DNA from: Candidatus Bathyarchaeia archaeon
GTDB taxonomy: Archaea; Thermoproteota; Bathyarchaeia; Bathyarchaeales; Bathycorpusculaceae
DNA: 64,000 nt
Direction of reading: 5' to 3'
NCBI GenBank assembly: GCA_049512935.1
Contig: JBEKWR010000003.1
Span: forward strand, 1 to 64,000
How positions within the stretch are numbered: position 1 is the stretch's first letter; the number at the start of each line of letters is the position of its first letter. The notes beneath the pieces were generated by a model. That model was not told the DNA's origin, did no database searches, and saw nothing but the letters and a program-made list of their open reading frames with translations. Below, one piece after another: positions 2,263-15,498 of this stretch. Made by a program: the position numbers and the translations under genes.

Positions 2263-3027
2263 TCAAAAACTTCTCAGAAGTTTGCGGTAATTTGGTATGT
2301 CGCGCAACTCTTGGATAGGAACGAATCCTCTTCCTGTGACCCAATATTGAGGTGACGGAGCTTCGCTGCCGAAGATTCGATACCATTGCATCTTTGTTTC
2401 TTCAGGCCATCTAATTTCAGTTAAAGTAATCTCTGCAGGAACTAAATCTGGGTAATTTTTGGCAATCATTTCTGCATTTCTTAACATGGTCGCTGAAGCC
2501 TTACTTATTGCATCGTTTGACAATGCTTCTAATTTGGGGTTTTGCTCATATCGTTCTTTCCAGCTAAGCCAACCTGCTAAGTTGATTACTTCCTTTGCTT
2601 CTCTTTCGACATTTTCTTGAGGTTCTTTCCATCCTGTCTCAGGAGCAAGCGCATAAAGAATGGACTTTGTAATTTCTGGATGTTTACCCGCTCGGCATGC
2701 GACTTCCTTCACTGTTGGCTCTCTGAAAAATCTTAATTCACATCTCAATTCTTCTAGCGCTTTTTTGACGTTTTCCATTTCAGCTTTTGTATAACGAGCG
2801 GGACTTTCGTTAATTGCAGGAGGACCAAACTCTGTTAAACCATAAATGACTGTGCGATCAGGAAAGACGTGTTTTTTGATTTGATTGCTTCGATAAGCTT
2901 TGCGTATGACAGTTCTAGCCTGTCTTTCCGATATTCTTCTTTTCTCGGCTATCATCTTGGCAAAATCTGTTGCCCCTATCCACTTGCCGTGCTTAAGTAG
3001 GACTTCATGAGCGGAAGTTTCATCCAT
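2263..3027 (-). CDS. Hypothetical protein with HTH-like segments
   Basis: 254-aa ATG ORF divergent from the ParB-like gene; ATDFAKMIAEKRRISERQARTVIR and PTVKEVACRAG look HTH-like. Confidence 0.6.
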   Translation of the reverse strand: MDETSAHEVLLKHGKWIGATDFAKMIAEKRRISERQARTVIRKAYRSNQIKKHVFPDRTVIYGLTEFGPPAINESPARYTKAEMENVKKALEELRCELRFFREPTVKEVACRAGKHPEITKSILYALAPETGWKEPQENVEREAKEVINLAGWLSWKERYEQNPKLEALSNDAISKASATMLRNAEMIAKNYPDLVPAEITLTEIRWPEETKMQWYRIFGSEAPSPQYWVTGRGFVPIQELRDIPNYRKLLRSF

Positions 3028-3093
3028 AGTTTACCATTTCACAAAACGCCTATCATTCAATTCACAATTTATAACTTTCTGAGGCTTCGGGCA

Positions 3094-3657
3094 ATGAAAA
3101 AGAAATCAACCCTTAAGGTTCCTGACGCTTATCTGCCGCTGGTTGAAGACCTTCGTGTTCTTAAAAGTGACAAAAATAACCCTAATAATATGACAATAGC
3201 ACAGAAGGATCAGGTTTGGCTTAGCCTTCAGAAGTACGGTTGGACCTACCCTATTATAACTAACAAGGAAGGCGTTTTTGCTGATGGTGAACAACGAGCT
3301 GAAGTCTGCAAGGACCATGGCGAATTTTTCGCTCCTGTTCTTAGATTGCCTGTTTCTGATGTTGATAGGAGAATGCTTCGGCAGATTCTTAACAAGCTTA
3401 GGGGCAAGCATAGCAAGGAGCTTGATGGCGCTGAGTACATGCGCATCATAGAGGCTGGCGAGAAAAACTGCCTAAAAACCTTGTTAGAATCCATCGGTGA
3501 GAAACTTCCAGAAGAACTCGACGGAGAGGGCGAAGGCGCGGGCGTTATACCTGGTAGTTACGAGCTTATCATAGAATGCAAAGACGAGGCACAGCAACAG
3601 TATTTTTTCGATAAACTCAAGGCTGAAGGCTACAGAGTCCGAGTCCTGAATCTTTAG
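3094..3657 (+). CDS. ParB/Srx-like N-terminal domain protein (viral type)
   Basis: NPNNM...SLQKYGWTYPII...DGEQR pattern of ParB-N; TTTATAA at 3068-3074 fits a start at ATG 3094. Confidence 0.75.
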   Translation: MKKKSTLKVPDAYLPLVEDLRVLKSDKNNPNNMTIAQKDQVWLSLQKYGWTYPIITNKEGVFADGEQRAEVCKDHGEFFAPVLRLPVSDVDRRMLRQILNKLRGKHSKELDGAEYMRIIEAGEKNCLKTLLESIGEKLPEELDGEGEGAGVIPGSYELIIECKDEAQQQYFFDKLKAEGYRVRVLNL

Positions 3658-3670
3658 GCGGCTGAACAGT

Positions 3671-4354
3671 TTGGATTTTGATTTTGTTAATAGTTGGCGT
3701 GAACCAGAAAGCTTTCGGGCGCAAAGCGTTGTTGGCAGTTTCACTCTGAACGATGTTAAACTGCAGAAGCGTTTCAAAGGTTCAATGCCGATAGAAGAAC
3801 ACGAATGGCAGATCGGCATTATTGTTGGGCGCAGCGGCTCAGGCAAATCAAGCATAGCAAAACAGCTCTTCCCAGACGCATACATCACTGGCTTTGAGTA
3901 CACTCACCAATGCATCTTGGACGACTTGGCTGAAGATATAGAAACAAGTGAAATAACGCGCTTGCTCTGTAGCGTCGGGTTTGCTAGCCCTCCAGACTGG
4001 CTTAAAGCTTACAGCTGTCTTAGCCAAGGGGAGAAGATGCGCGTCGACATCGCTCGCGCTCTTAGTCTGCACAAGAAACTTGTCGTCTTTGATGAGTTCA
4101 CGTCGGTCGTGGATCGAGAGGTTGCCAAGATCGCTTCATACGCAATTAGCAAGGCAATTAAGCGTCAAAAAGACAGGAAATTCATAGCCGTAACCTGCCA
4201 TTACGACGTGGTTGACTGGCTGGATCCTGACTGGGTTTTTTGCACTGACACAATGGAATTTGACCGAAAAAAAGAACTCGGCCGTCCGTTGAACTCAAGG
4301 TTTATCGGTGCGGCGCTTCTATGTGGAAAATGTTTCGGCAGTATCACTATTTGA
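3671..4354 (+). CDS. ABC-type ATPase (N-terminal part of a probable ATPase-GNAT fusion)
   Basis: Walker A GRSGSGKS, signature LSQGEKMR, Walker B VVFDEF, H-loop VTCH; no membrane partner. Confidence 0.85.
   Translation: MDFDFVNSWREPESFRAQSVVGSFTLNDVKLQKRFKGSMPIEEHEWQIGIIVGRSGSGKSSIAKQLFPDAYITGFEYTHQCILDDLAEDIETSEITRLLCSVGFASPPDWLKAYSCLSQGEKMRVDIARALSLHKKLVVFDEFTSVVDREVAKIASYAISKAIKRQKDRKFIAVTCHYDVVDWLDPDWVFCTDTMEFDRKKELGRPLNSRFIGAALLCGKCFGSITI
4267..4314 (+). promoter_or_regulatory. Candidate -1 programmed ribosomal frameshift signal
   Basis: In-frame A_AAA_AAA at 4267-4273, 7-nt spacer, hairpin 4281-4314; the -1 frame is open from 4264 into the GNAT ORF. Confidence 0.65.
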
Positions 4355-4791
4355 ATGGGAAACTTGGAGCAGGCGTCAGATGCTATGTTGCCTTTTACCA
4401 AGAAAGGCCTGTAGCCTTTATTGCGGTTGCACATGTGCATATGAGAGGGCACTTTTTCCGTGTTAGCCGTTTGGTGGTGTCGCCTGACTATCAGGGCATA
4501 GGCATTGGAAAACGTTTGCTAAACTTTATCGCTGAACTCTATACTTCTCAGATGAATTTACCCTTTTTTCTGGTAACGAGCAATCCTCAACTCATCCGTG
4601 GAAACTTACGGAACTGGAGAGTAAAGCGTGTTGGCCATGTCAGCAGCCAGGGAGGAGAGGACAATCGGTTAAATCGAGGGCTAGCCAAGTCGATCAGTAG
4701 GGGGCGTCTCACTGTATCTCTTCAATATGTACCTCAGAAACGACCCTGTCAAACCAAAGACAATTCTTCAAAGGCACCGGATTATGAATGA
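4321..4791 (+). CDS. GNAT-family acetyltransferase (Mom-like), likely expressed as a frameshift fusion
   Basis: SRLVVSPDYQGIGIGKRLL acetyl-CoA motif A; WKMFRQYHYL. Confidence 0.8.
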   Translation: MWKMFRQYHYLNGKLGAGVRCYVAFYQERPVAFIAVAHVHMRGHFFRVSRLVVSPDYQGIGIGKRLLNFIAELYTSQMNLPFFLVTSNPQLIRGNLRNWRVKRVGHVSSQGGEDNRLNRGLAKSISRGRLTVSLQYVPQKRPCQTKDNSSKAPDYE

Positions 4792-5185
4792 CAAAACGCT
4801 TGATAGACGATTGGATTTGTTGAGGCTTGAAGGAAACGGTTTGCAGCCTTCAGAAATTGTAAAAGAGCTAAGCGCGAAGTATGCAGTTACTCAGCGTGCA
4901 GTTTACGCGGACTTTGAAACTAGAAGTAGCTGGCAGCCTTTTTTGCAGGAGATGAAGGAGGCGCTGCTGAAGGTTCGTAATAGGCATGAGCAGCTGTATC
5001 GAAAAGCTATAGTTGCATATATGCAAGCTAAGTCTGACCGTGCGCGGATAGCTGCTTTGAATCTTTTGCGCCAAATAAACTTTGATCTCGCTGAATTGAC
5101 TGGCGCCAAATCTCAAAAGCCTTCCGAGCCTGAAGAAAGTGTTATCAAATGGGAGGACCCCAAAGAATGCAAAAAACAATACTGA
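4784..5185 (+). CDS. Putative terminase small subunit (HTH protein)
   Basis: N-terminal HTH (PSEIVKELSAKYAVTQRAVYAD); overlaps both the GNAT stop and the TerL start. Confidence 0.55.
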   Translation: MNDKTLDRRLDLLRLEGNGLQPSEIVKELSAKYAVTQRAVYADFETRSSWQPFLQEMKEALLKVRNRHEQLYRKAIVAYMQAKSDRARIAALNLLRQINFDLAELTGAKSQKPSEPEESVIKWEDPKECKKQY

Positions 5186-6414
5186 TACAATACAAGCCTC
5201 ATCCCGGGCAACTTGATTTTCATATGTCTTGCGCAAGATTTAGGGTACTTAACTGTGGTCGTCGCTGGGGTAAAACGATTGCAGGCGCTAACGAGTTCAT
5301 AAGACAAATATGGAAACAAGGCAAGGACATTGTGGGCTTTGCTGTTGCACCGACGTATTGGCACACTCAGCGGCAATGGAGTGAATTCTTCAACTTTTGT
5401 CCTCCTGAGCTTATAGTGAGTATTCATCGCGCTGATCGGCATGTTATCCTCAAGGGTGACCGCGATGTCTGGTTTAAGAGTGCAGAGAATCCTGATTCAC
5501 TAAGGAGTCAAGGCGTGAAGGTTCTCTGGGTTGATGAGGGTGCGCAGATTGCTGAGGAAGCTTGGACTCTTGCGCTTAGACCCGCACTTATGGATGGGAA
5601 AGGAATAGCTTTTTTTACGGGTACGCCAAGAGGGCATAACTGGTATTTTGGGCTATGGACCCGCGGGCAAGACCCGTCTCAAACTGATTACAAGAGCTGG
5701 AGTTTCCCAAGCGCCAGTAACCCGTATTTGGATCCAGCGGAGATTGTGGCTTTCGCTAGAGATATGCCAGAGCTGGCTTACCGTCAAGAGGTTCTTGCTG
5801 AGTTTCTTGAGGATGTTGGCAGTGTTTTCCGAGGTGTTGACCGCATAGTCAAAGGGAGCTTTCAACCTTTTTCAAAACACAAACAGTATGTTATGGGTGC
5901 TGACCTCGCGAAGCTCGAAGACTTCACGGTGCTTTGCGTTTTAGACGTGGCCGGACACCTCTGCGCTTTCGACAGGTTCAGCCAGGTAGACTGGGTTTTG
6001 CAGCGTAAACGCATAGTTCAACTTGCCCAGCGATATGATGCTCGTTTGCTTATTGACAGCTCAGGTGTCGGTGACCCAATCTGCGACGATCTTCACCGCG
6101 AAAATATCCGAGTAGAAGGGTACAAGTTCACGAACGCAACAAAAAAAGACCTGATCGAAAACTTAAGCATAATGATTGAGAATCAGCAGCTGACGTTACC
6201 GCAGGTTCCCGAGTTGATTAATGAGCTTAAAATGTACGGTTACAAGACTACGCCAAGTGGAAATGTGCAGTATGGGGCGCCCGAAGGCTACCACGATGAC
6301 TGCGTTGTAGCTTTAGCGTTGGCTGCTTGGCAACTAAAACGAACTCCACCTCCAGGCACGGGCGCTTTCTTTATCCCCCATTTAATTTCTAAAATGACAT
6401 TTCGTTTGACATAA
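5167..6414 (+). CDS. Terminase large subunit
   Basis: HPGQ adenine-binding motif, Walker A CGRRWGKT, Walker B LWVDE, TGTP coupling motif, nuclease GADLA...DFT...HDDCV. Confidence 0.92.
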   Translation: MQKTILIQYKPHPGQLDFHMSCARFRVLNCGRRWGKTIAGANEFIRQIWKQGKDIVGFAVAPTYWHTQRQWSEFFNFCPPELIVSIHRADRHVILKGDRDVWFKSAENPDSLRSQGVKVLWVDEGAQIAEEAWTLALRPALMDGKGIAFFTGTPRGHNWYFGLWTRGQDPSQTDYKSWSFPSASNPYLDPAEIVAFARDMPELAYRQEVLAEFLEDVGSVFRGVDRIVKGSFQPFSKHKQYVMGADLAKLEDFTVLCVLDVAGHLCAFDRFSQVDWVLQRKRIVQLAQRYDARLLIDSSGVGDPICDDLHRENIRVEGYKFTNATKKDLIENLSIMIENQQLTLPQVPELINELKMYGYKTTPSGNVQYGAPEGYHDDCVVALALAAWQLKRTPPPGTGAFFIPHLISKMTFRLT

Positions 6415-6551: not shown

Positions 6552-7562
6552 TCATGAATGTTGCAAGAACCAAGCCACAGTTCTCTTTAGTCCTTCCTCT
6601 AAGTTTACGTTTGGCTTCCATTCAGCAAGCCGCAGCAGTTTAGATGTGTCGGGGCAGCGTCTTTTCGGGTCATCTTTAGGCAACGGATGGAATTCTATGG
6701 TTGACTTGGTTTTTGTTGCTTCTTGAACTTTCTTTGCCAACTCTAGAATGGTGGTTTCTTCTATGCTGCCCACGTTGACGACTTCGCCCTTGGCTTTCGG
6801 GCTAGCCATCAGCAGCATTAACGCCGTTACCGTATCGGTTATGTAGCAGAAGGACCGCGTTTGCCTTCCGTCGCCGTAAACCGTTATGGGTTGATTAGTC
6901 AACGCCTGTGAAATAAACCGGGACATGACCCTTCCGTACAAGCCGTCTTCCCGCAAGCGGGGACCGTAAGTGTTGAAGATTCTTGGAATCCTCACGTCCA
7001 GCCCATAATGTGCGCTGTAGGCGACAAGCAGAGCCTCGGCAAAACGTTTGCCCTCATCATAACAGGACCTGGGTCCGATCGGGTTGACTTTTCCCCAGTA
7101 ACTCTCAGGGGTGGGAATGATCTCTGTGTCGCCGTAAACTTCCGAGGTTGAAGCAAACAACAGAGCGGCGTCGTTTTTTCTTGCCAGCTCCGCCATGGCG
7201 AAGGTTCCTGCCGCGCTGGTCTGCAGGGTCTCAATGGGGTGCGCTTGGTAATCGTCGGGCGATGCGTGGGCTGCCAAGTGGAAGATGAAATCAAACTTTT
7301 TCTTGTCGTCGAACGTGCAAACGTCTGACTTCACAAATTCAAACAGCGAGTTTTTAGTCAAGTGGTCAATGTTTTTGTTTCTTCCAGTCGACAAGTCGTC
7401 TACGGCGGTCACTTGGGCGCCTGACTCAACCAGCACGTCGCAGAGCCAACTGCCGATAAATCCTGCGCCGCCAGTCACGAGTGCTCTTTTTCCTGCGAAA
7501 TCAGCTCGCCTAACGACGCTTCTTATCTTTTCAAGATCTTCCCTGATTATGTTGTTGATCAT
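6552..7562 (-). CDS. UDP-glucuronate decarboxylase (UDP-xylose synthase)
   Basis: GGAGFIG, STSEVYGD, YWGKVNPIGPRSCYDEGKR, RIFNTYGPR. Confidence 0.9.
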   Translation of the reverse strand: MINNIIREDLEKIRSVVRRADFAGKRALVTGGAGFIGSWLCDVLVESGAQVTAVDDLSTGRNKNIDHLTKNSLFEFVKSDVCTFDDKKKFDFIFHLAAHASPDDYQAHPIETLQTSAAGTFAMAELARKNDAALLFASTSEVYGDTEIIPTPESYWGKVNPIGPRSCYDEGKRFAEALLVAYSAHYGLDVRIPRIFNTYGPRLREDGLYGRVMSRFISQALTNQPITVYGDGRQTRSFCYITDTVTALMLLMASPKAKGEVVNVGSIEETTILELAKKVQEATKTKSTIEFHPLPKDDPKRRCPDTSKLLRLAEWKPNVNLEEGLKRTVAWFLQHS

Positions 7563-8431
7563 GGGTTTGGTACCTTGCAGAATTGTTTGTGTGACAGCTC
7601 TAAAGCTTGCCAGTACCTTTCAGGGCTTCCGATGTCCAAGTGAGAGTAACTGTTGTCAAGCCTGACGGCGATGACCTTTAAGCCCCAGTCGATGAGTTTC
7701 TGGATGGCGTCGGTAAGCTGGATTTCACCGTTTTTTCCAGGCTTAGTTATTTCCAAGGCTTCAAAAATTACAGGTTGAAAGGCGTACATCGCCATGACTG
7801 CCCAGCGTGTCTTAGGCTTCTCAGGTTTCTCAACCACGGACTTCACATTGATTATTCCAGACTCCACCTCGCCACCTTCAACAATCCCGTACTGAGTGGG
7901 ATTCTCAATCTCCAAAACCAGAAATGCAGCGTCCGCTTTGAACTGTTCGAAAGCTGCAAGAAGCTTCTTTAAGTAATCCATCTCTTTCGAAATTACGCAG
8001 CTGTCACCTGCGTGGACTAGGCAGCTTTCGTTTTCAACGAAGGGTTGAGCCAACAAGACCGCGTTGCCGAATCCTTTCGGTTCAGGCTGGTTAACCCACA
8101 TCGCCGTCGAAGAATCAAGCTTTCCGTAAAACCTCTCCAGGTCAGATGCTGGTCCATTTTTCCCTGAGCTTTCAAGTGCCTTGATGCATTGCTCGTCAGG
8201 GGTGAAATGGTCCTCTATTCCGCGTTTGCCTCTGCCGACAACGTAGCAAAACTCGCGCATCCCAGCGTCGAAAAGCTGCTCAAAAACCAGTTGCACAACT
8301 GGCTTCACCACCATATCGCCGTGCGGTGTCTTAGTGAAGATGGGCAGCATTTCTTTGGGCTGTTCTTTGGTTGCCGGAAAAAGCCGTGTGCCCAAGCCGG
8401 CTGCTGGAATAATGACCTTTTTAATCATCAA
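7559..8431 (-). CDS. galU: UTP-glucose-1-phosphate uridylyltransferase
   Basis: IPAAGLGTRLFPATKEQPKEMLP, VEKP, GEIQLTDAI. Confidence 0.88.
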   Translation of the reverse strand: MMIKKVIIPAAGLGTRLFPATKEQPKEMLPIFTKTPHGDMVVKPVVQLVFEQLFDAGMREFCYVVGRGKRGIEDHFTPDEQCIKALESSGKNGPASDLERFYGKLDSSTAMWVNQPEPKGFGNAVLLAQPFVENESCLVHAGDSCVISKEMDYLKKLLAAFEQFKADAAFLVLEIENPTQYGIVEGGEVESGIINVKSVVEKPEKPKTRWAVMAMYAFQPVIFEALEITKPGKNGEIQLTDAIQKLIDWGLKVIAVRLDNSYSHLDIGSPERYWQALELSHKQFCKVPNP

Positions 8432-8522
8432 GGAGAACCTTGGCTTTCTTTTCTATGTCAAGCCATATATATCTAATATGATTAATTAATCCAAATTATT
8501 ATTCAAGTTTGGTGCTAAGTGT

Positions 8523-9866
8523 TTGCGTAAGCAGCCGAAAATATCAGTTATAGGTGCAGGTTACGTGGGCTTATGCACGGCGGTTGGGTTTTCAAGCAAA
8601 GGCTATCATGTCACTGTCTCAGAAGTAGATGCGGATAAAGCAGGAAAAATCAATCTGGGAATACCGCCTTTCTATGAGCCTGGGCTTCAGGAGAAGCTTG
8701 CGGCGGGCGTTAGAGACGGCTATCTGAAATGTTTCGTTAACCAAACGTGTAAAGTTGTGCTTGGGTCTGACTTGACTTTTGTGACGGTTGGGACTCCGAG
8801 CAGAACGGACGGCAGTGTGGACCTCTCGTACGTGGAATCAGTGGCGCATGAGGTTGGCGCGGCGCTGAGGCAAAGAAGCAGTTTCCACGTTGTTGTAATC
8901 AAAAGCACAGTTATACCTGGGACAACTCAGAACACTGTGAAACCTGTTCTTGAAAAAGAATCAGGCAAGATTTGTGGTGAACAGTTCGGTTTGTGCATGA
9001 ACCCAGAGTTTCTTCGTCAAGGCTCGGCTTTTCAAGACACCGTGAACGCTGACCGAGTCGTTATAGGCTCTTATGATAAACGGTCAGGCGACATTCTGGA
9101 GGACCTGTACAGGGACTTTTACAGCCCTCAGCTGCCCCCGATAATCAGAACTTCCCTTTCCACGGCGGAACTCATAAAGTACGCGAGCAACGCCATGCTA
9201 GCCACGAAAATCAGCTTCATCAACACGATAGCCAACATTTGCGAAAAAATTCCAGGCGCAGACGTCAAAGAGGTTGCTGCAGCCATAGGTTTGGACAAAC
9301 GCATCGGACCCCACTTTCTGGACGCGGGCTTAGGCTACGGGGGCTCATGCTTCCCCAAAGACGTGCAAGCCCTCATTGCCTGCTCAAAAACTTTAGGCTA
9401 CACCCCTGAGCTTTTGGATTCGGTCGAAAACGTAAACCGTGCGCAACCCCTTAAAGCCGTGGAGTTCTGCAAGCAGCAGCTCGGCAGCTTGGGCGGCAAA
9501 AGAGTTGCGATTTTGGGTTTGTCATTCAAGCCTGACACGGACGATATGAGGGAAGCCCGGGCTATACCCATCATAGACGAGTTGCTAAGAGAAGGGGCAA
9601 GCGTCGCCGCTTATGATCCTGTTGCTGCGTCGTCTGCGAAAACCGTTTTTGGGAGCAAAATCCGCTATGCCCGTTCGGCGCTTGATTGCATTAAAGACGC
9701 GGATTGCGCGATAGTTGTGACTGAATGGCGCGAGTTCCAGGAGTTAACCCCTGAAGATTTCGCGGAGAACATGAGGCAGCCTATACTCATAGATGGACGA
9801 CGCATTTACAGCCCTGAAAAGTACAGCAAGAAACTCAAGTTCGCAGCCATAGGACTAGGCAAGTAA
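8523..9866 (+). CDS. ugd: UDP-glucose 6-dehydrogenase
   Basis: GAGYVG, NPEFLRQG, GYGGSCFPKD, FKPDTDDMRE. Confidence 0.92.
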   Translation: MRKQPKISVIGAGYVGLCTAVGFSSKGYHVTVSEVDADKAGKINLGIPPFYEPGLQEKLAAGVRDGYLKCFVNQTCKVVLGSDLTFVTVGTPSRTDGSVDLSYVESVAHEVGAALRQRSSFHVVVIKSTVIPGTTQNTVKPVLEKESGKICGEQFGLCMNPEFLRQGSAFQDTVNADRVVIGSYDKRSGDILEDLYRDFYSPQLPPIIRTSLSTAELIKYASNAMLATKISFINTIANICEKIPGADVKEVAAAIGLDKRIGPHFLDAGLGYGGSCFPKDVQALIACSKTLGYTPELLDSVENVNRAQPLKAVEFCKQQLGSLGGKRVAILGLSFKPDTDDMREARAIPIIDELLREGASVAAYDPVAASSAKTVFGSKIRYARSALDCIKDADCAIVVTEWREFQELTPEDFAENMRQPILIDGRRIYSPEKYSKKLKFAAIGLGK

Positions 9867-10259
9867 CAAAACAATAATGTTTCAGAGCCGAGTTGAATGC
9901 ACAAAAAATTTTAGCTGAAAAACTCATCGAAAAATCCCCGCCATATTATGGTGTAAACCCGCCAAAATTGGTTAAAACGCTGCGAATACGCGCGGTTTTC
10001 ACGTTGAATTCCTTCACAAACTTGACGCCTAAAGACCGTTTCCGCGGAGTTTTTAGCGGTTTCAAGCCCGTTTCATGCTTCTTATCGTTGAAAAATCACG
10101 AGTTTTTGAAGGGTTAGCTTCAAAATTTTGCCGCGAAAATTGAAGAGGCGGTCTTCCGTGACTGTGAATTCAAATTGTTGAACCAAAAGTGATAAACGCA
10201 ACCGAAACCACTCAACAGTTTAACTTTACTGTTCAAGATTAAGACTTAGGAAGAGATGC

Positions 10260-11870
10260 ATGAGCAAAGCTACTGAGATGGCGAAGGTTTCGGCGAGAGG
10301 CGGCTTTAATCTTATGTGGGGCTTAGCTGCTTCTACGGTCATCTCTTCCATAGGCATCATAGTCATAACTTACATTTTGGGGGCGCAAAACTACGGTTTA
10401 TACTCGATTGCCCTCGTTGGACCGACGTTGATTGCCACGTTCCGCGACTGGGGTGTTAACTCAGCCATGGTAAAGTACTCCGCGCAGTACAACGTTGAGG
10501 ACAAAGCCAAAATAAGAGGAATCCTTTTCTCAGGGATAGTTTTCGAGATCGCGTTAGGCTTATCGCTTACCCTTGTTTCGTTTGCTCTTTCTCCCTTTAT
10601 TGCCTCTAGCCTGCATCGTCCAGCGATGGTGCCGTTGATTCAAATCGCTTCTTTCTACATCTTGGCGGGTGCGTTGGTGAACTCTGCCACCGCCGCGTTC
10701 ACTGGACTGGAAATAATGCACCTCTACAGTTTCATGCTGATAATTCAGTCAACAGTTAAGACTGCGCTGATAATTTTGCTCGTGCTGCTTGGCTTCGGGA
10801 CTCTTGGAGCCATAACAGGTTACTCGGGCGCCTCGCTGATCGCTGGGTTGGCTGGTGTTTTTTTAGTCTGGGGCCTTTACAGGGGGCTGCCTAAATCATC
10901 CCGCAGCAGAACGGAAGTTTTTTCGACAATTAAAGTCATGTTACGTTACGGCGTGCCAGTTTCAATTGGCAACATACTTTCCGGATTCCTGTCGGTGTTC
11001 TACAGCTTCGTTCTGGCAATCTATGTTTCAAACAATGCTTTGATTGGAAACTACAACTTGGCGGTGAACTTCTCTATTTTAATTACTTTCTTCGCTACGC
11101 CGGTCACAACCATGATGTTTCCTGCGTTCTCAAAGCTGGACTTCAGGAAGGATCATGACACTCTTAAGAACGTCTTCCAATACTCGGTGAAGTACGCCTC
11201 GCTTGTCGTCGTGCCAGTCACCGCCTTGGTTATTACTCTTGCGGCGCCTGGTATTAGAACTATTTATCAAAACAGTTATGCCGAGGCGCCGTTGTATTTG
11301 GCTTTGCTTTCAGTGACTTATCTTTACACTGCGTTGGGAAATTTGAGTATAAACAACTTGCTGAACGGGCAAGGTTTCACTAAGATTAGCATGTACCTTT
11401 CTCTTATTACATGCGCAATTGGTTTCCCAGTTGGTTTCCTGCTAATTTCTCACTTCGGCGTTGTGGGGTTGATTGTGACGACGTTAACTGTCGGCTTGCC
11501 GAGTTTGTATGCAAGTTTGGCTATCATTAAAAGGAGGTTTAGAGTTTCGGTGGATTGGGTGTCCTCCGCTAAAATTTTGTTTTCGTCAGCCATAGCCTCC
11601 ATTCTGACGTACTTTATAATCTCGGAAGTTCCCCTAACCGTGTTGAGGTTGGATGTTTGGAAGATCGCTTTGCATGTTTCAGTTGCGTTGCAGCAGTTGA
11701 TTGTCGGGTTGATCGCTTTTGTGATAATTTTTATTCTGGCGGCTGTTGCTACTCGTACACTCGATAAAGCCGATGTGTTTTCTCTTCAGCAAATTTCTGA
11801 TGCGCTTGGACCTCTTCGTCGGCCTTTACGTTTTCTGTTTAAAGTGATTGCAAAATTAATGGGCGGGTAA
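10260..11870 (+). CDS. Oligosaccharide flippase (Wzx/MOP family)
   Basis: Multi-TM 536-aa protein inside a sugar-nucleotide locus; LGAQNYGLYS and MFPAFS patterns. Confidence 0.8.
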   Translation: MSKATEMAKVSARGGFNLMWGLAASTVISSIGIIVITYILGAQNYGLYSIALVGPTLIATFRDWGVNSAMVKYSAQYNVEDKAKIRGILFSGIVFEIALGLSLTLVSFALSPFIASSLHRPAMVPLIQIASFYILAGALVNSATAAFTGLEIMHLYSFMLIIQSTVKTALIILLVLLGFGTLGAITGYSGASLIAGLAGVFLVWGLYRGLPKSSRSRTEVFSTIKVMLRYGVPVSIGNILSGFLSVFYSFVLAIYVSNNALIGNYNLAVNFSILITFFATPVTTMMFPAFSKLDFRKDHDTLKNVFQYSVKYASLVVVPVTALVITLAAPGIRTIYQNSYAEAPLYLALLSVTYLYTALGNLSINNLLNGQGFTKISMYLSLITCAIGFPVGFLLISHFGVVGLIVTTLTVGLPSLYASLAIIKRRFRVSVDWVSSAKILFSSAIASILTYFIISEVPLTVLRLDVWKIALHVSVALQQLIVGLIAFVIIFILAAVATRTLDKADVFSLQQISDALGPLRRPLRFLFKVIAKLMGG

Positions 11871-11969
11871 TGATTCGGCGAATTGATAGGGGTTGGTTTT
11901 GGCGGCGGTGTTTAACGTAAGCTTTAAGTGGAAAAAACGGGTCATAGTTTAAACCATAATTGAGTTGGG

Positions 11970-13034
11970 ATGTTCATGAAGGCGCTTGTCCTCAGCGGCG
12001 GCAAAGGCACCAGGCTTAGGCCCTTAACCTTCACCTGCGCTAAGCAGCTTATTCCAGTGGCTAACAAGCCTATTTTAGGGTACGTTCTTGACCAGGTGGC
12101 GGCGACCTCGATAAGAAAGGTGGGCGTTATCACCGCGCGTGAGACGGGGCAGTACGTTAAAGATTACGTCAGCGACGGTTCAGCTTGGAATCTTTCCGTT
12201 ACTTATATTCCTCAGGAACCGCTTGGTTTAGCGCATGCTGTTAAGACTGCCGGGCGGTTTTTGGGGCAAGACTCTTTTGTCATGTGCTTGGGCGACAACC
12301 TTACGGGTCAGGGTTTAAACTCGTTTATCAAGAAGTTTAAAAGTGAGCATCTTGACGCGCTCATCATTCTAAAGTACGTTGATAACCCCTCCAGTTTTGG
12401 CATTGCTCAGCTTGATGAAAAAGGATGCATCGTTAAGCTTGTCGAGAAGCCTAAGACGCCGATGGGAAATCTTGCCATCATCGGCACGTACCTGTTCAGC
12501 GGCAAGGTTCATCAGGCTATTGAGAGAATTAAGCCTTCTTGGCGGGGCGAGTTAGAAATTACCGATGCCATTCAAGAAATGATAAACCTGGGCTTCAGGG
12601 TCAAGGCTGAAATCTTGAACTCATGGTGGTTGGACACGGGCAAGAAGGATGATATTTTGTCGGCGAACGCGAAGGTGCTTGACGAGTACATCACGCTTGA
12701 CGTGAAGGGAGAAGTGGTTAACAGTTCGATAGACGGCAGAGTTAAGGTTGAACCTGAAGCTAAGATCGTGAACAGCACTGTCAGGGGGCCATGCGTTATT
12801 GGCAAGAACGTGTCGATTGAAAACTCCTTCATTGGACCTTACACGAGCATTGGTAACGGGTCGGTAATCGTTGACTCTAACGTTGAATACTGCGTCATAC
12901 AAGAGAACGTCACGGTCAGAGGCATAGTGCGCCTGGAGGAAAGCTTAATCGGAAAAAACGCCAAGGTCACAAGGAACCAGCGGAACGGAACCATAAAATT
13001 GCATGTTGGCGACTTCTCGGAACTGGAGGTTTAA
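11970..13034 (+). CDS. rmlA: Glucose-1-phosphate thymidylyltransferase (long form)
   Basis: LSGGKGTRLRPLT, AKQLIPVANKP, RGELEITD, C-terminal left-handed beta-helix. Confidence 0.9.
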   Translation: MFMKALVLSGGKGTRLRPLTFTCAKQLIPVANKPILGYVLDQVAATSIRKVGVITARETGQYVKDYVSDGSAWNLSVTYIPQEPLGLAHAVKTAGRFLGQDSFVMCLGDNLTGQGLNSFIKKFKSEHLDALIILKYVDNPSSFGIAQLDEKGCIVKLVEKPKTPMGNLAIIGTYLFSGKVHQAIERIKPSWRGELEITDAIQEMINLGFRVKAEILNSWWLDTGKKDDILSANAKVLDEYITLDVKGEVVNSSIDGRVKVEPEAKIVNSTVRGPCVIGKNVSIENSFIGPYTSIGNGSVIVDSNVEYCVIQENVTVRGIVRLEESLIGKNAKVTRNQRNGTIKLHVGDFSELEV

Positions 13035-13096
13035 CCCGAAAACATAACAACTATTATAAACATTGTTATGAGAATTAGTGTCAAGGGAGCGCTGTA

Positions 13097-13600
13097 ATGT
13101 TACAAGGGGTAAGGGTTAAGCCAGTAAGTAGGTTGCCTGATGAACGCGGCTTTTTCTCTGAGGTTATGCGTAAGGATTGGAAAGACCTGTTCGGGGAAGA
13201 CGCTGTTGCTCAAGCGAATCTTTCATCGACTTATCCAGGAGTCATTCGAGCGTGGCATCGCCATCTCAGGGGGCAGACAGATTATTTTCTATTGCTTAAA
13301 GGCGCGATAAAAATCTGCGCTTTCGACGACAAAACCCAAGAGCTCAACGAAGTTGTCTCAAACGCTTTAAACCTGCAGCTTGTGCGCGTGCCTGGCAGCT
13401 ACTGGCACGGTTTCAAGGCGCTCGGTGACGAATCTGCCATGCTGCTTTACTTTACAACCAACCTGTATGACCCTGCCAACCCTGATGAGGAACGCAGGCC
13501 GTGGAATGACTCGTCGCTTGTTCCTAAAATAATAAACGGCAAGAAAGACGATGTGCGTGTCGGTAAAACGTGGGACTGGAATCTCCCAGCTCACAGGTGA
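13097..13600 (+). CDS. rmlC: dTDP-4-dehydrorhamnose 3,5-epimerase
   Basis: DERGFF, GVIRAWH, WHGF; operon position. Confidence 0.9.
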   Translation: MLQGVRVKPVSRLPDERGFFSEVMRKDWKDLFGEDAVAQANLSSTYPGVIRAWHRHLRGQTDYFLLLKGAIKICAFDDKTQELNEVVSNALNLQLVRVPGSYWHGFKALGDESAMLLYFTTNLYDPANPDEERRPWNDSSLVPKIINGKKDDVRVGKTWDWNLPAHR

Positions 13601-13606
13601 TTAACC

Positions 13607-14614
13607 ATGAGATTGTTAGTTACTGGCGGTTTAGGGTTTATCGGTAGCAATTTTTGTAGGCTCATACTTGAGAAGTATCCTGACTACGAAGTGATCAACG
13701 TTGATAAGATGGGCATAGGCGCTAACCCGGCTAACCTTCACGGCGTTGAAAACGACAAGAGGTACACGTTCATTAAGGGTGATGTCTGCAATCCGCAGCT
13801 GATTAACAGGCTGATCCATCAGGTTGACGCCATCGTTAACTTCGCGGCGGAGACGCATGTGGACAGAAGCATCGCTGACCCCAACGTGTTTCTGCAGAAC
13901 AATACGGTCGGCACCTTCACGGTTTTAGAAGCCATACGCAGGCACAGTCATAAAGTGAGGCTTTTGCAGGTGTCCACTGACGAGGTTTACGGTGAAGCGC
14001 TTGAAGGATCATTCACGGAGCATGAACCGCCTAAACCGTCTAATCCTTACTCCGCTTCCAAAGCCGCCGCTGACATGTTTGTCCTCTCATACCATAAAAC
14101 TTACAATTTGAACGTAACCGTTACGCGGTGTACAAACAACTTCGGTCCATACCAGCTGCCTGAGAAGCTCATTCCGAAAACCATTATCCGCGCGCTGAGG
14201 GATCTCCCGATACCGATCTACGGGTCTGGGCAAAACGTTCGAGACTGGATTTACGTGCAGGATCATTGTGAAGCCATCGCGACGGTTCTTGAGAAAGGCG
14301 TGGCAGGCGAAGTTTACAACATTTCAGCTGGAAACGAAATTCCCAACTTGGAGATCGCGAAGAAAATCATTGCTTTGCTGAATAAGCCTGAAAGTTTGAT
14401 AGGTTTCGTGGAGGACCGTCCGGGGCACGATACAAGGTACAGTTTGGATTCTACGAAGATAAGAACCAGTTTGAGTTGGCAGCCGAAGTGCAGTTTTGAA
14501 GAGTCGTTGCAGTCCACTGTGAAGTGGTATCTTGAGAACGAGCACTGGTGGGCGCCGTTTGCCAACGACGTGATTCTTCACCCTACACCTTGGAAACTCG
14601 GCGATATGCATTGA
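13607..14614 (+). CDS. rmlB: dTDP-glucose 4,6-dehydratase
   Basis: AAETHVDRSI, STDEVYG, YSASKA, DRPGHD. Confidence 0.95.
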   Translation: MRLLVTGGLGFIGSNFCRLILEKYPDYEVINVDKMGIGANPANLHGVENDKRYTFIKGDVCNPQLINRLIHQVDAIVNFAAETHVDRSIADPNVFLQNNTVGTFTVLEAIRRHSHKVRLLQVSTDEVYGEALEGSFTEHEPPKPSNPYSASKAAADMFVLSYHKTYNLNVTVTRCTNNFGPYQLPEKLIPKTIIRALRDLPIPIYGSGQNVRDWIYVQDHCEAIATVLEKGVAGEVYNISAGNEIPNLEIAKKIIALLNKPESLIGFVEDRPGHDTRYSLDSTKIRTSLSWQPKCSFEESLQSTVKWYLENEHWWAPFANDVILHPTPWKLGDMH

Positions 14615-15498
14615 AGCTTTTAATCACTGGCGCCAGCGGCCTTTACGGTTCGAAACTGGCAAAAACGGCGATTGAAAAGAACGTTGAAGTTTTTTCGTGC
14701 GATGTTCAAGAGTCGCTGGTCTGCGGGAACTTCGTCAAGTTTGACGTTTCAAACAAAGAACAGGTTGCCGAAGCGTTCAAGCGGGTTAAGCCCGACGTTG
14801 TAATCCACGCCGCCACCCTTACCGACGTTGACAAGTGCGAGTTGAACAAGGAGTTTGCCTGGAAAATCAACGTTGAAGGCACCAGAAACATCGTTGAATC
14901 AGCCAGAAACGCGGGTTCTTTTCTGATGTACATTTCAACCGACTACGTTTTTAACGGCGAAAAAGGCATGTACACCGAGCAGGATAATCCTGACCCGATA
15001 AACTATTACGGGTTAACCAAGCTCAAAGCTGAGGAACTGGTCAAGGCTTCAGGTGAGTACTTCATCGCCCGGCCAAGCGTCATCTACGGTTCGACTCCCG
15101 CCCTTGGAAAAGTCAACTTTGCCCTTTGGCTAATCGAAACCCTCCGCAAAGGCGAACGCGTCAAGATTGTTACCGACCAGTGGAACACGCCTACGCTGAA
15201 CACGAGTCTGGCTGAAATGACGCTGGAGGCTGCGATGCGCAGTCTAACTGGAACTTTCCACTTGTGCGGCGCCACGCGGGTCAGCCGATTGGAGTTCGCG
15301 CAGCTAATCGCTGAAACCTTTGGCTTAGACAAGAGGCTTATTGATCCCGTCTTGTCTTCTCAATTCAGTTGGCCTGCTAAGCGGCCGATGGATTCCTCGC
15401 TTGACACCACAAAGGCTCAGCAGACGCTGAAAAACCAGCCGCTTGAGATTTATGAAGCGCTGAAACGTTTGAAACTTGAACTTACGGGGAACAGTTGA
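14611..15498 (+). CDS. rmlD: dTDP-4-dehydrorhamnose reductase
   Basis: TTG start overlapping the rmlB stop; ITGASG, STDYVFNG, YGLTK, AKRP. Confidence 0.92.
   Translation: MKLLITGASGLYGSKLAKTAIEKNVEVFSCDVQESLVCGNFVKFDVSNKEQVAEAFKRVKPDVVIHAATLTDVDKCELNKEFAWKINVEGTRNIVESARNAGSFLMYISTDYVFNGEKGMYTEQDNPDPINYYGLTKLKAEELVKASGEYFIARPSVIYGSTPALGKVNFALWLIETLRKGERVKIVTDQWNTPTLNTSLAEMTLEAAMRSLTGTFHLCGATRVSRLEFAQLIAETFGLDKRLIDPVLSSQFSWPAKRPMDSSLDTTKAQQTLKNQPLEIYEALKRLKLELTGNS

Follow-up and report, generated by a model that had tools for sequence, protein, structure and literature searches.

The window analysed here is a 64,000-nucleotide (nt) stretch of DNA from a Candidatus Bathyarchaeia archaeon (assembly GCA_049512935.1, contig JBEKWR010000003.1, positions 1 to 64,000 of the forward strand). 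Near its beginning lies a gene in which an ABC-type ATPase and a GNAT acetyltransferase domain occupy overlapping reading frames. The 0-frame open reading frame (ORF) extends on the plus strand from a TTG start at 3671 to 4354 (3671..4354) and encodes an ABC-type ATPase of 227 amino acids (aa), matched by Pfam ABC_tran (E 8e-10) and phrog_11143 (E 2e-57). Its Walker A (GRSGSGKS), signature (LSQGE), Walker B (DEF) and H-loop (CHYD) motifs are all present, and the corresponding columns are invariant in 28 in-frame relatives. This alignment used 28 of 35 distinct in-frame ORFs, excluding two near-copies (L038, L040), two over-long ORFs (L055, L070) and three that are cut or short (L075, L076, L077). 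A second ORF on the plus strand (4264..4791), in the -1 frame relative to the ATPase, encodes a linker and a GNAT domain (Pfam Acetyltransf_7, Acetyltransf_1 and Acetyltransf_10, E 1e-9 to 2e-8). The C-terminal GNAT domain is contiguous with the ATPase only by way of this -1 frame. The composite gene (3671..4791, plus strand) has a predicted 373-aa ATPase-GNAT trans-frame product whose halves match contiguous parts of one PHROG profile.

Read directly, the 0 frame at 4265-4276 is CGA AAA AAA GAA. It contains the slippery heptamer A_AAA_AAA (4267..4273, plus strand), an A7 run of the form X_XXY_YYZ in register with the 0 frame, whose 0-frame codons are AAA at 4268-4270 and AAA at 4271-4273. The -1 frame has a TGA at 4261-4263 and, reading PKKRTRPSVELKVYRCGASMWKMFRQYHYL..., stays open from 4264 until a stop at 4789-4791. 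Entered at 4273 after a slip, the -1 frame provides 172 codons, which with 201 ATPase residues give the 373 aa of the fusion; the 0-frame product ends at the stop at 4352-4354. Residues 1-201 of the ATPase form the nucleotide-binding domain, and the 26 residues that follow are the GNAT N-terminus read out of frame.

The heptamer is followed by a spacer of 7 nt (4274..4280, plus strand), fixed in length and variable in sequence, and by a putative stimulatory hairpin (4281..4314, plus strand); this distance falls within the 5-9 nt that separate a slip site from a stable RNA structure. The outer stem (4281-4288/4306-4314) has 8 pairs, with T4309 bulged and one G-U pair at T4285, and encloses an inner stem (4290-4295/4299-4304) and the loop CAA (4296-4298). 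For 4267-4330, ViennaRNA returned the hairpin at -18.8 kcal/mol (z = -2.35), with 5 of 200 shuffled sequences as stable. A search of Rfam with 4100-4500 returned no family at E up to 1. A preliminary description of this DNA had placed the heptamer and the hairpin at these positions, with the -1 frame open after the TGA and leading into the GNAT domain, and had proposed products of 227 and about 373 aa. Its coordinates are exact, the same fold was obtained, the -1 frame was found as described, and the recomputed lengths are 227 and 373 aa.

The same description had named an A8 run, and hence a homopolymer error, as an explanation to be checked. Logan contigs of four sequencing runs carry A7, not A8, without insertions or deletions; one of them matches the window without a single difference over 4050-4550, and shorter records cover 4247-4315 or 4255-4315. 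This check used contigs rather than raw reads, is silent on rare A8 variants and on expression, and one of the runs may be the source of this DNA. The Logan contigs of three runs (X1, X2, X4) break at 4276-4286, and the summed depth rises 2- to 5-fold over 4254-4321. These breaks fit assembly-graph branching among related copies in the same samples that have the heptamer and hairpin in common.

Conservation of the frame break

Relatives of the locus were fetched from IMG/VR (78 loci) and from genomes (80 loci, the best 80 of 173), 78 of the latter being labelled Bathyarchaeota/Bathyarchaeia or uncultured archaeon and two, on short contigs, Anaerolineaceae. The close set comprises 114 of 159 sources, the window included, with at least 60% identity in the ATPase alignment to codon 201. 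The GNAT domain follows in the -1 frame from the same A-run in 113 of these 114 loci, and in all 113 the 0-frame stop lies exactly 26 codons past codon 201. In most of the 113 the -1 frame is open for at least 150 codons, and their identity falls to 61% in the ATPase and 39% in the GNAT domain. Close homologs that are all in-frame fusions, which the preliminary description had held would speak against a frameshift, were therefore not what was found. The single in-frame member of the A-run clade is L032, which has one A more than its A9 neighbours (A10, at 3585-3600) and reads as an uninterrupted fusion; it may have reverted, or its extra A may be a homopolymer error. None of the 120 nearest proteins in a collection of 5.8 billion is of fusion size, their lengths being 197-282 aa. 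In four loci (L134, L131, L151 and L117) the heptamer is kept and the -1 frame is cut after 18, 29, 44 and 66 codons, respectively; these are likely decaying copies.

An alternative explanation is an assembly or sequencing error in the homopolymer, or a dead gene in a decaying provirus. Homopolymers are prone to error, host-type sugar genes directly follow the window's cassette, and the truncated GNAT frames of the four relatives above are in keeping with decay. However, the break recurs in 113 loci drawn from many assemblies and studies, long-read chromosomes included, the four runs agree on A7, and both frames are open and under purifying selection. Sequencing error as such was rejected on the recurrence of the break and the agreement of the runs, and the explanation as a whole is extremely improbable.

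The -1 frame was compared with relatives in which the two domains share a frame. No stop separates the two domains in any of the 42 distant loci (ATPase identity below 53%), each of which is a single in-frame ORF. In 22 distinct fusions the inter-domain stretch aligns residue by residue with the -1 frame of the window, beginning at the RP motif: the linker of the in-frame relatives has the form RP-x-L-x-L-x-V ... W-x-x-F-x-x-HHYL, and the window's -1 frame reads RPSVELKVY...WKMFRQYHYL. The -1 ORF is thus homologous to part of single-frame relatives, and the 0-frame tail of the window's ATPase aligns with nothing in the in-frame fusions. On the 357-position profile phrog_11143, the ATPase ORF covers 12-199 and the -1 frame 197-354, so that the two matches meet at the heptamer; the match to the -1 frame begins at the third residue of that frame. 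By these alignments, the ancestral-type state is an ATPase-GNAT fusion. Among 109 distinct sequences, variation upstream of the site peaks at the 0-frame third position (1.21 versus 0.26 and 0.21 bit) and downstream at the -1-frame third position (1.51 versus 0.82 and 0.56 bit).

In an AlphaFold model of the natural fusion L032 (mean pLDDT 85.7, pTM 0.72), the ABC domain extends to about residue 200 and is joined to the GNAT domain by a linker modelled at lower confidence. The first GNAT strand of the model (210-214) corresponds to 4288-4308 in the window, upstream of the ATG codons at 4321 and 4330, the sole candidate starts. A GNAT domain initiated separately at either codon would therefore be without its first strand. 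This bears on an alternative account of the locus as two genes, in which the ATPase ends at 4354, the GNAT starts at the ATG at 4321 (or 4330), and the overlap and the A-run are relics of an old gene split. An ATG is indeed found at -1-frame codon 16 or 19 in 83 of the 114 loci, all gene callers report the 227-aa form, and public annotations, such as that of Streptococcus phage MismyG, list a separate 'GNAT family N-acetyltransferase'. On the other hand, 31 of the 114 loci have no ATG at those codons (the first ATG is at codon 30 or later in 29, and 2 have none). The -1 frame of Streptococcus phage 315.4, checked over its whole length, contains no ATG before the conserved GNAT core. The sequence from heptamer to ATG corresponds by homology to the linker and first strand in the in-frame fusions, and a gene split would leave the frozen heptamer, and the frozen synonymous sites in two complementary arms described below, without an explanation. 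Two independently initiated genes are for these reasons quite improbable.

Constraint on the heptamer and hairpin

All 111 distinct related genes have the heptamer at the same codon, with each of its 7 positions kept. The final base of codon 199 is A without exception (CGA in 72, AGA in 8, AAA in 29 and CAA in 2), codon 200 is invariably AAA, and codon 201 is AAA in 105 genes and AAG in 6 (A_AAA_AAG). Elsewhere in the same genes, 54% of lysine codons are AAA and 40% of arginine codons end in A. Judged against this background, the heptamer is under selection.

Constraint on the hairpin region was assessed as entropy in 82 A7 loci (79 distinct sequences). Six -1-frame third positions lie in the outer stem, and their mean entropy is 0.02 bit; the 73 third positions of the GNAT body average 1.5 bit, with none below 0.2. 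The spacer at 4275-4279 has entropies of 0.55-1.7 bit and no change of length, and both the spacer and the 9 nt past the stem vary at all codon positions. Since synonymous sites are frozen in the arms and the spacer and post-stem bases vary, the extra constraint beyond coding is, by this measure, limited to the two complementary stem arms. The stem is paired in 92.8% of cells, as compared to 29-58% when the 3' partners are slid.

The length of the A-run and the hairpin are associated. At least 7 of the 8 outer pairs form at the same register in 81 of the 82 A7 loci, for which the mean minimum free energy is -20.4 and the mean z is -2.14. The exception, L134, is the sole A7 locus with a damaged hairpin, and its GNAT frame is the one cut after 18 codons. 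In contrast, 27 of 28 A9 loci lack the hairpin, having at most 4 of the outer pairs, and no substitute structure was found in the 55 nt downstream (mean z -0.24), pseudoknots being outside the search. One locus (L139) has both A9 and the hairpin, and two of three A8 loci have the hairpin, the third (L033, ending A_AAA_AAG) being without it. For the A9 forms, slippage may be the work of the polymerase or of an unassisted ribosome.

The phylogenetic distribution of the two designs was examined in a quick IQ-TREE maximum-likelihood tree of the ATPase domain (163 of 165 sources, 150 distinct rows, midpoint root, several long branches). Run type tracks the downstream, GNAT-side sequence and not the ATPase phylogeny, where A7 and A9 forms are mixed, and the downstream half may have been exchanged by recombination at or close to the A-run. 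As an instance of adjacency in the tree, L101, L104, L105 and L107, with A7 and the hairpin, adjoin L144, L148, L149 and L154, with A9 and no hairpin.

Because the A9 forms have a long run without a stimulator, transcriptional slippage is the main rival to a ribosomal mechanism. An A added by RNA polymerase would put A8 in part of the mRNAs, which would then have the whole fusion in a single frame; the same proteins would result. An extra A yields exactly the -1 product, and the natural relative L032, with one A more than its A9 neighbours, is an in-frame fusion. The A9 relatives, 27 of the 28 without the hairpin, are basal within the A-run clade of the quick tree. Runs of about nine A are typical polymerase slippage sites, with a threshold of about 9 or more. 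The window has only A7, below that length, the longer runs being found in relatives (28 with A9, one with A10). Its A7 state is of the kind coupled to a hairpin 7 nt downstream in 81 of 82 loci, which is the position of a ribosomal stimulator and to our knowledge has no role in polymerase slippage. The run is also kept in the 0-frame register X_XXY_YYZ in 111 of 111 genes, which polymerase slippage would not need. We consider transcriptional slippage unlikely for the window.

These results are best explained if the window's site is a programmed -1 ribosomal frameshift in a provirus-derived gene from a peat archaeon, an explanation to which we assign a probability of roughly 0.72. The frameshift proposed in the preliminary description is thus upheld by the conserved break, by the homology of the -1 frame to in-frame fusions and by the frozen hairpin arms. 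That the site is programmed for recoding at all, the ribosomal and polymerase mechanisms being taken together, is very probable. Since the run is A7, the hairpin lies at 7 nt and the heptamer is in register, ribosomal frameshifting fits the window better than transcriptional slippage, and we infer that it is the ribosome rather than RNA polymerase that slips.

Several points weigh against this interpretation. The window's hairpin is weaker than most, with its G-U pair at 4285 (-17.4 kcal/mol and z -1.33 for a 55-nt stretch). A covariation test found 0 pairs changed on both sides of the stem, because the outer stem never varies, and support for the hairpin therefore consists of thermodynamics and frozen synonymous sites. 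Since 27 of the 28 A9 relatives are without the hairpin, recoding in this family is not always hairpin-dependent. Codon periodicity is indistinct in the 48 nt past the heptamer (1.01, 0.60 and 0.92 bit at the -1-frame positions), and separate initiation of a truncated GNAT is possible in the 83 of 114 loci with a suitable ATG. The window's copy lies in an apparent provirus remnant and may be unexpressed. We infer the fusion product, the making of and need for both products, and their ratio from comparison of related sequences. The response of archaeal ribosomes to such hairpins has been little studied (PMC8211752).

Domain functions, gene neighbourhood and phage relatives

The GNAT domain had been called Mom-like in the preliminary description, a label that is not supported. 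Searches of Pfam, PHROGs and NCBIfam returned generic GNAT families only, and these libraries may or may not hold a Mom model; NCBIfam gave only below-cutoff ABC and RimI matches. The domain contains YQGIGIGKRL, which we take to be a loop of the acyl-CoA-binding type. The JGI name of phrog_11143 is 'ABC-type ATPase with predicted acetyltransferase domain'. A sequence search of the PDB with the in-frame alignment matched generic ABC domains only. Foldseek with the L032 model returned ABC domains, with TmcA (PDB 2zpa) at rank 10 (E 9e-8, TM-score 0.31).

The ABC-coupled GNAT has been listed as a superfamily member separate from Mom (PMC7824862). The same comparative study of jumbo-phage genomes, citing Iyer et al. 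2013, reports an earlier prediction that it gives a DNA base an acyl modification, as yet uncharacterised, and names Tenacibaculum phage pT24 as an example (PMC7824862). This phage is among the tblastn matches of the window's GNAT (H76/H77). A 2026 study found that phage ParB-like proteins can activate adjacent-encoded DNA base-modifying dioxygenases, often near terminase genes (PMC13229309). Because a ParB-like neighbour is kept here, and in view of this literature on ABC-coupled GNATs and ParB-like activators and of the weak likeness to TmcA, the ATPase-GNAT and the ParB-like protein would be a candidate ATP-dependent acyl-transferase system, acting on viral DNA or nucleic acid near the packaging genes.

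The gene for the ParB-like protein (3007..3657, plus strand) encodes 216 aa with a ParB-like N-terminal domain (PHROG ParB-like partition and DNA methyltransferase families, E 1e-10 to 7e-12). It lies directly upstream of the ATPase, and terminase genes lie downstream, which is the setting typical of phrog_11143. The ParB-like gene adjoins the ATPase in 109 of 111 clade loci, and such a neighbour is also annotated in Streptococcus and Oenococcus phages. An ORF of 152 aa (4727..5185, plus strand) occupies the small-terminase position; it has no match in Pfam or PHROG, and its place between the GNAT and the terminase large subunit is conserved in 40 of 111 clade loci. The terminase large subunit itself is encoded at 5149..6414 on the plus strand (Pfam Terminase_6N, E 3e-14; Terminase_6C, E 5e-8), and its presence marks the cassette as DNA of a head-tailed virus.

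The window is the start of its contig. Right after the terminase, 6552-15498 holds host-type genes for nucleotide-sugar epimerases, UDP-glucose dehydrogenase and glycosyltransferase-like proteins, with no portal or capsid genes in that interval, and the remainder of the window is chromosomal. With the cassette at the contig start and host sugar genes next to it, the viral cassette looks like a provirus remnant or provirus edge. The window's own genome has one copy of the cassette and one unrelated ABC gene. In public annotation, the gene is a lone 'ABC transporter ATP-binding protein', and the acetyltransferase fusion is missed.

Copies of the cassette are numerous in some metagenome-assembled genomes. 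Seven ParB/ATPase/GNAT cassettes occur in one Bathyarchaeia assembly, CAVUGQ01 (L125, L142, L148, L150, L151, L155 and L158), and several others have 3-4 copies each. Two further copies (L086 and L122) are on contigs of 3.0 and 7.1 kb binned as Anaerolineaceae; they are probably mis-binned, since they nest among Bathyarchaeia copies in the tree.

Related breaks were also found in bacteriophages. In tblastn searches of GenBank phages, the ATPase matched 63 records and the window's GNAT 55. For every Streptococcus, Lactococcus and Oenococcus phage record present in both lists, the listed coordinates place the GNAT start 593 or 596 nt past the ATPase start and hence in the -1 frame. In Gordonia, Arthrobacter, Burkholderia, Porphyromonas and Pseudoalteromonas phages, the GNAT is in frame with the ATPase. 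Six of the -1 phage records were read; the -1 frame holds the conserved linker and GNAT in each, and the boundary carries CAG GTT TTT C in five and A_AAG_GGC in one Oenococcus phage. CAG GTT TTT C is not a canonical heptamer. It was seen about 550-600 nt into the ATPase gene of L159 (Streptococcus phage 315.4), L160 (Lactococcus phage P335), L164-L166 and L035. The Oenococcus site (L163, Oenococcus phage Vinitor-27, near 2080-2100 of the locus) is a canonical A_AAG_GGC, a few codons downstream of the Streptococcus-phage shift. The annotations of these lactic-acid-bacteria phages give only an 'ABC transporter' gene and a short downstream ORF. Two IMG/VR loci appear to be further independent-looking variants of a break at the same place: L034 (3555-3580) combines a T9 boundary run with a GNAT in the +1 frame, and in L036 (3540-3565; 50% identity) the run is A9 and the GNAT follows in the -1 frame.

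In the ATPase tree, the frameshifted forms are all on one side of a branch with SH-aLRT 97, and the in-frame forms are outside it, except for L032, which nests among A9 forms. The frameshifted side holds 110 rows of the A-run clade (including the in-frame L032), L036, seven forms with T5-type sites or A_AAG_GGC, and one T9 form with the +1 frame. A single origin of the frameshifted forms is a lead offered by this quick tree.

Proposed mechanism and comparison with known systems

In the mechanism that we propose, ribosomes translating the ABC ATPase would reach A_AAA_AAA at 4267-4273 while the hairpin at 4281-4314 resists unwinding. A fraction of them would slip back one base and continue in the -1 frame through the short linker into the GNAT domain. 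Two products with the same N-terminus would result, the 227-aa ATPase and the 373-aa ATPase-GNAT fusion. Since ABC domains function as dimers, the fusion may have the short ATPase as a partner, and mixed dimers of ATPase and ATPase-GNAT would then set the dose of the catalytic domain.

A broader joint reading of the archaeal and phage data is possible but doubtful. It holds that the boundary between ATPase and GNAT is an old, maintained recoding site common to archaeal proviruses and lactic-acid-bacteria phages, and that its signal was replaced several times while the product ratio sets the stoichiometry of a DNA-acylating machine. The replaced signals would be A9 without hairpin, A7 with hairpin, GTT_TTT_C and A_AAG_GGC, and the replacements may include switches between polymerase and ribosome slippage. 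If this is true, the machine would be guided by ParB and driven by ATP, would acylate viral DNA ahead of packaging, and would owe its stoichiometry to a constant proportion of ATPase to ATPase-GNAT.

No published description of this ATPase-GNAT recoding was found in literature searches. The main text of two papers on Bathyarchaeia viruses has no mention of ABC, acetyltransferase, ParB or frameshift, although their supplements may list the gene, and the part of a 2016 recoding review that was covered does not mention ABC, P335 or Streptococcus (PMC5009743). The mechanism is a textbook one; as far as we have seen, the novelty lies in the gene, the host lineage, how deeply the site is conserved and the alternation between designs. 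The locus would add an archaeal -1 case with unusually deep comparative support, which comes from more than 100 diverged copies, from outgroups in frame and from a stem whose synonymous sites are frozen. Its natural variants (A7 with hairpin, A9 without, A10 in frame) are a ready mutational series for slippage by the archaeal ribosome and polymerase, which makes it relevant to researchers of recoding and of archaeal viruses. Public annotation is corrected as well, the lone ABC ATPase entry having missed the acetyltransferase fusion. For a widespread, uncharacterised phage ATPase-GNAT, a predicted DNA-modification enzyme, the apparent production of two forms in some lineages would be a clue to its assembly.

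The site resembles dnaX of Escherichia coli, which makes tau and gamma, two ATPase products with a common N-terminus, from an A-run heptamer with a downstream hairpin. The dnaX-type heptamer A_AAA_AAG also occurs in 6 relatives here. In dnaX, the shifted product is the shorter one and an upstream Shine-Dalgarno-like stimulator takes part, whereas here the shift would add a whole catalytic domain. In the case of TmcA, the tRNA(Met) cytidine acetyltransferase, a P-loop ATPase and a GNAT domain likewise share one chain with a nucleic-acid base as target. Its ATPase is of the helicase type, however, and not an ABC domain, and with a TM-score of 0.31 the analogy is one of architecture and not of membership. 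The phage ABC ATPase-coupled GNAT has the same domain pair as the window's gene; it is described as a fused protein, with no frameshift mentioned in the part of the article available (PMC7824862).

Among cellular genes, a putative magnesium chelatase frameshift in Methanococcus and relatives is covered in the 2016 review (PMC5009743). As here, the magnesium chelatase of Methanococcus/Methanocaldococcus and of bacteria has, at an ORF overlap, an A_AAA_AAR that is under purifying selection, and ribosomal versus polymerase slippage is debated for it (PMC5009743). Unlike the present case, it is a cellular gene with no tie to viruses or GNAT domains. Among viral genes, the tail assembly chaperone G/G-T of tailed phages and of the haloarchaeal viruses HVTV-1 and HCTV-1/2/5 is, as here, a conserved -1 frameshift that gives a short and a C-terminally extended protein, and it is the sole archaeal-virus frameshift named in the parts of these reviews available (PMC5009743, PMC8211752). 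It differs in gene family and function, uses heptamers such as G_GGA_AAC, and adds no enzymatic domain.

Another archaeal parallel is fucA1 (alpha-L-fucosidase) of Saccharolobus solfataricus, the single archaeal -1 frameshift with an experimental demonstration, which a 2021 review gives as the sole reported case beside inferred haloarchaeal-virus ones (PMC8211752). There, too, a -1 shift links two overlapping ORFs; the heptamer is A-rich, a putative stem-loop lies downstream of it, and full-length relatives differ by one A in the run (PMC8211752). However, fucA1 is a cellular enzyme gene whose site is identical only among close Sulfolobales strains (PMC8211752). Here, the gene is viral, the site is kept across 113 diverged loci, and the 0-frame product is a complete domain and not a fragment.

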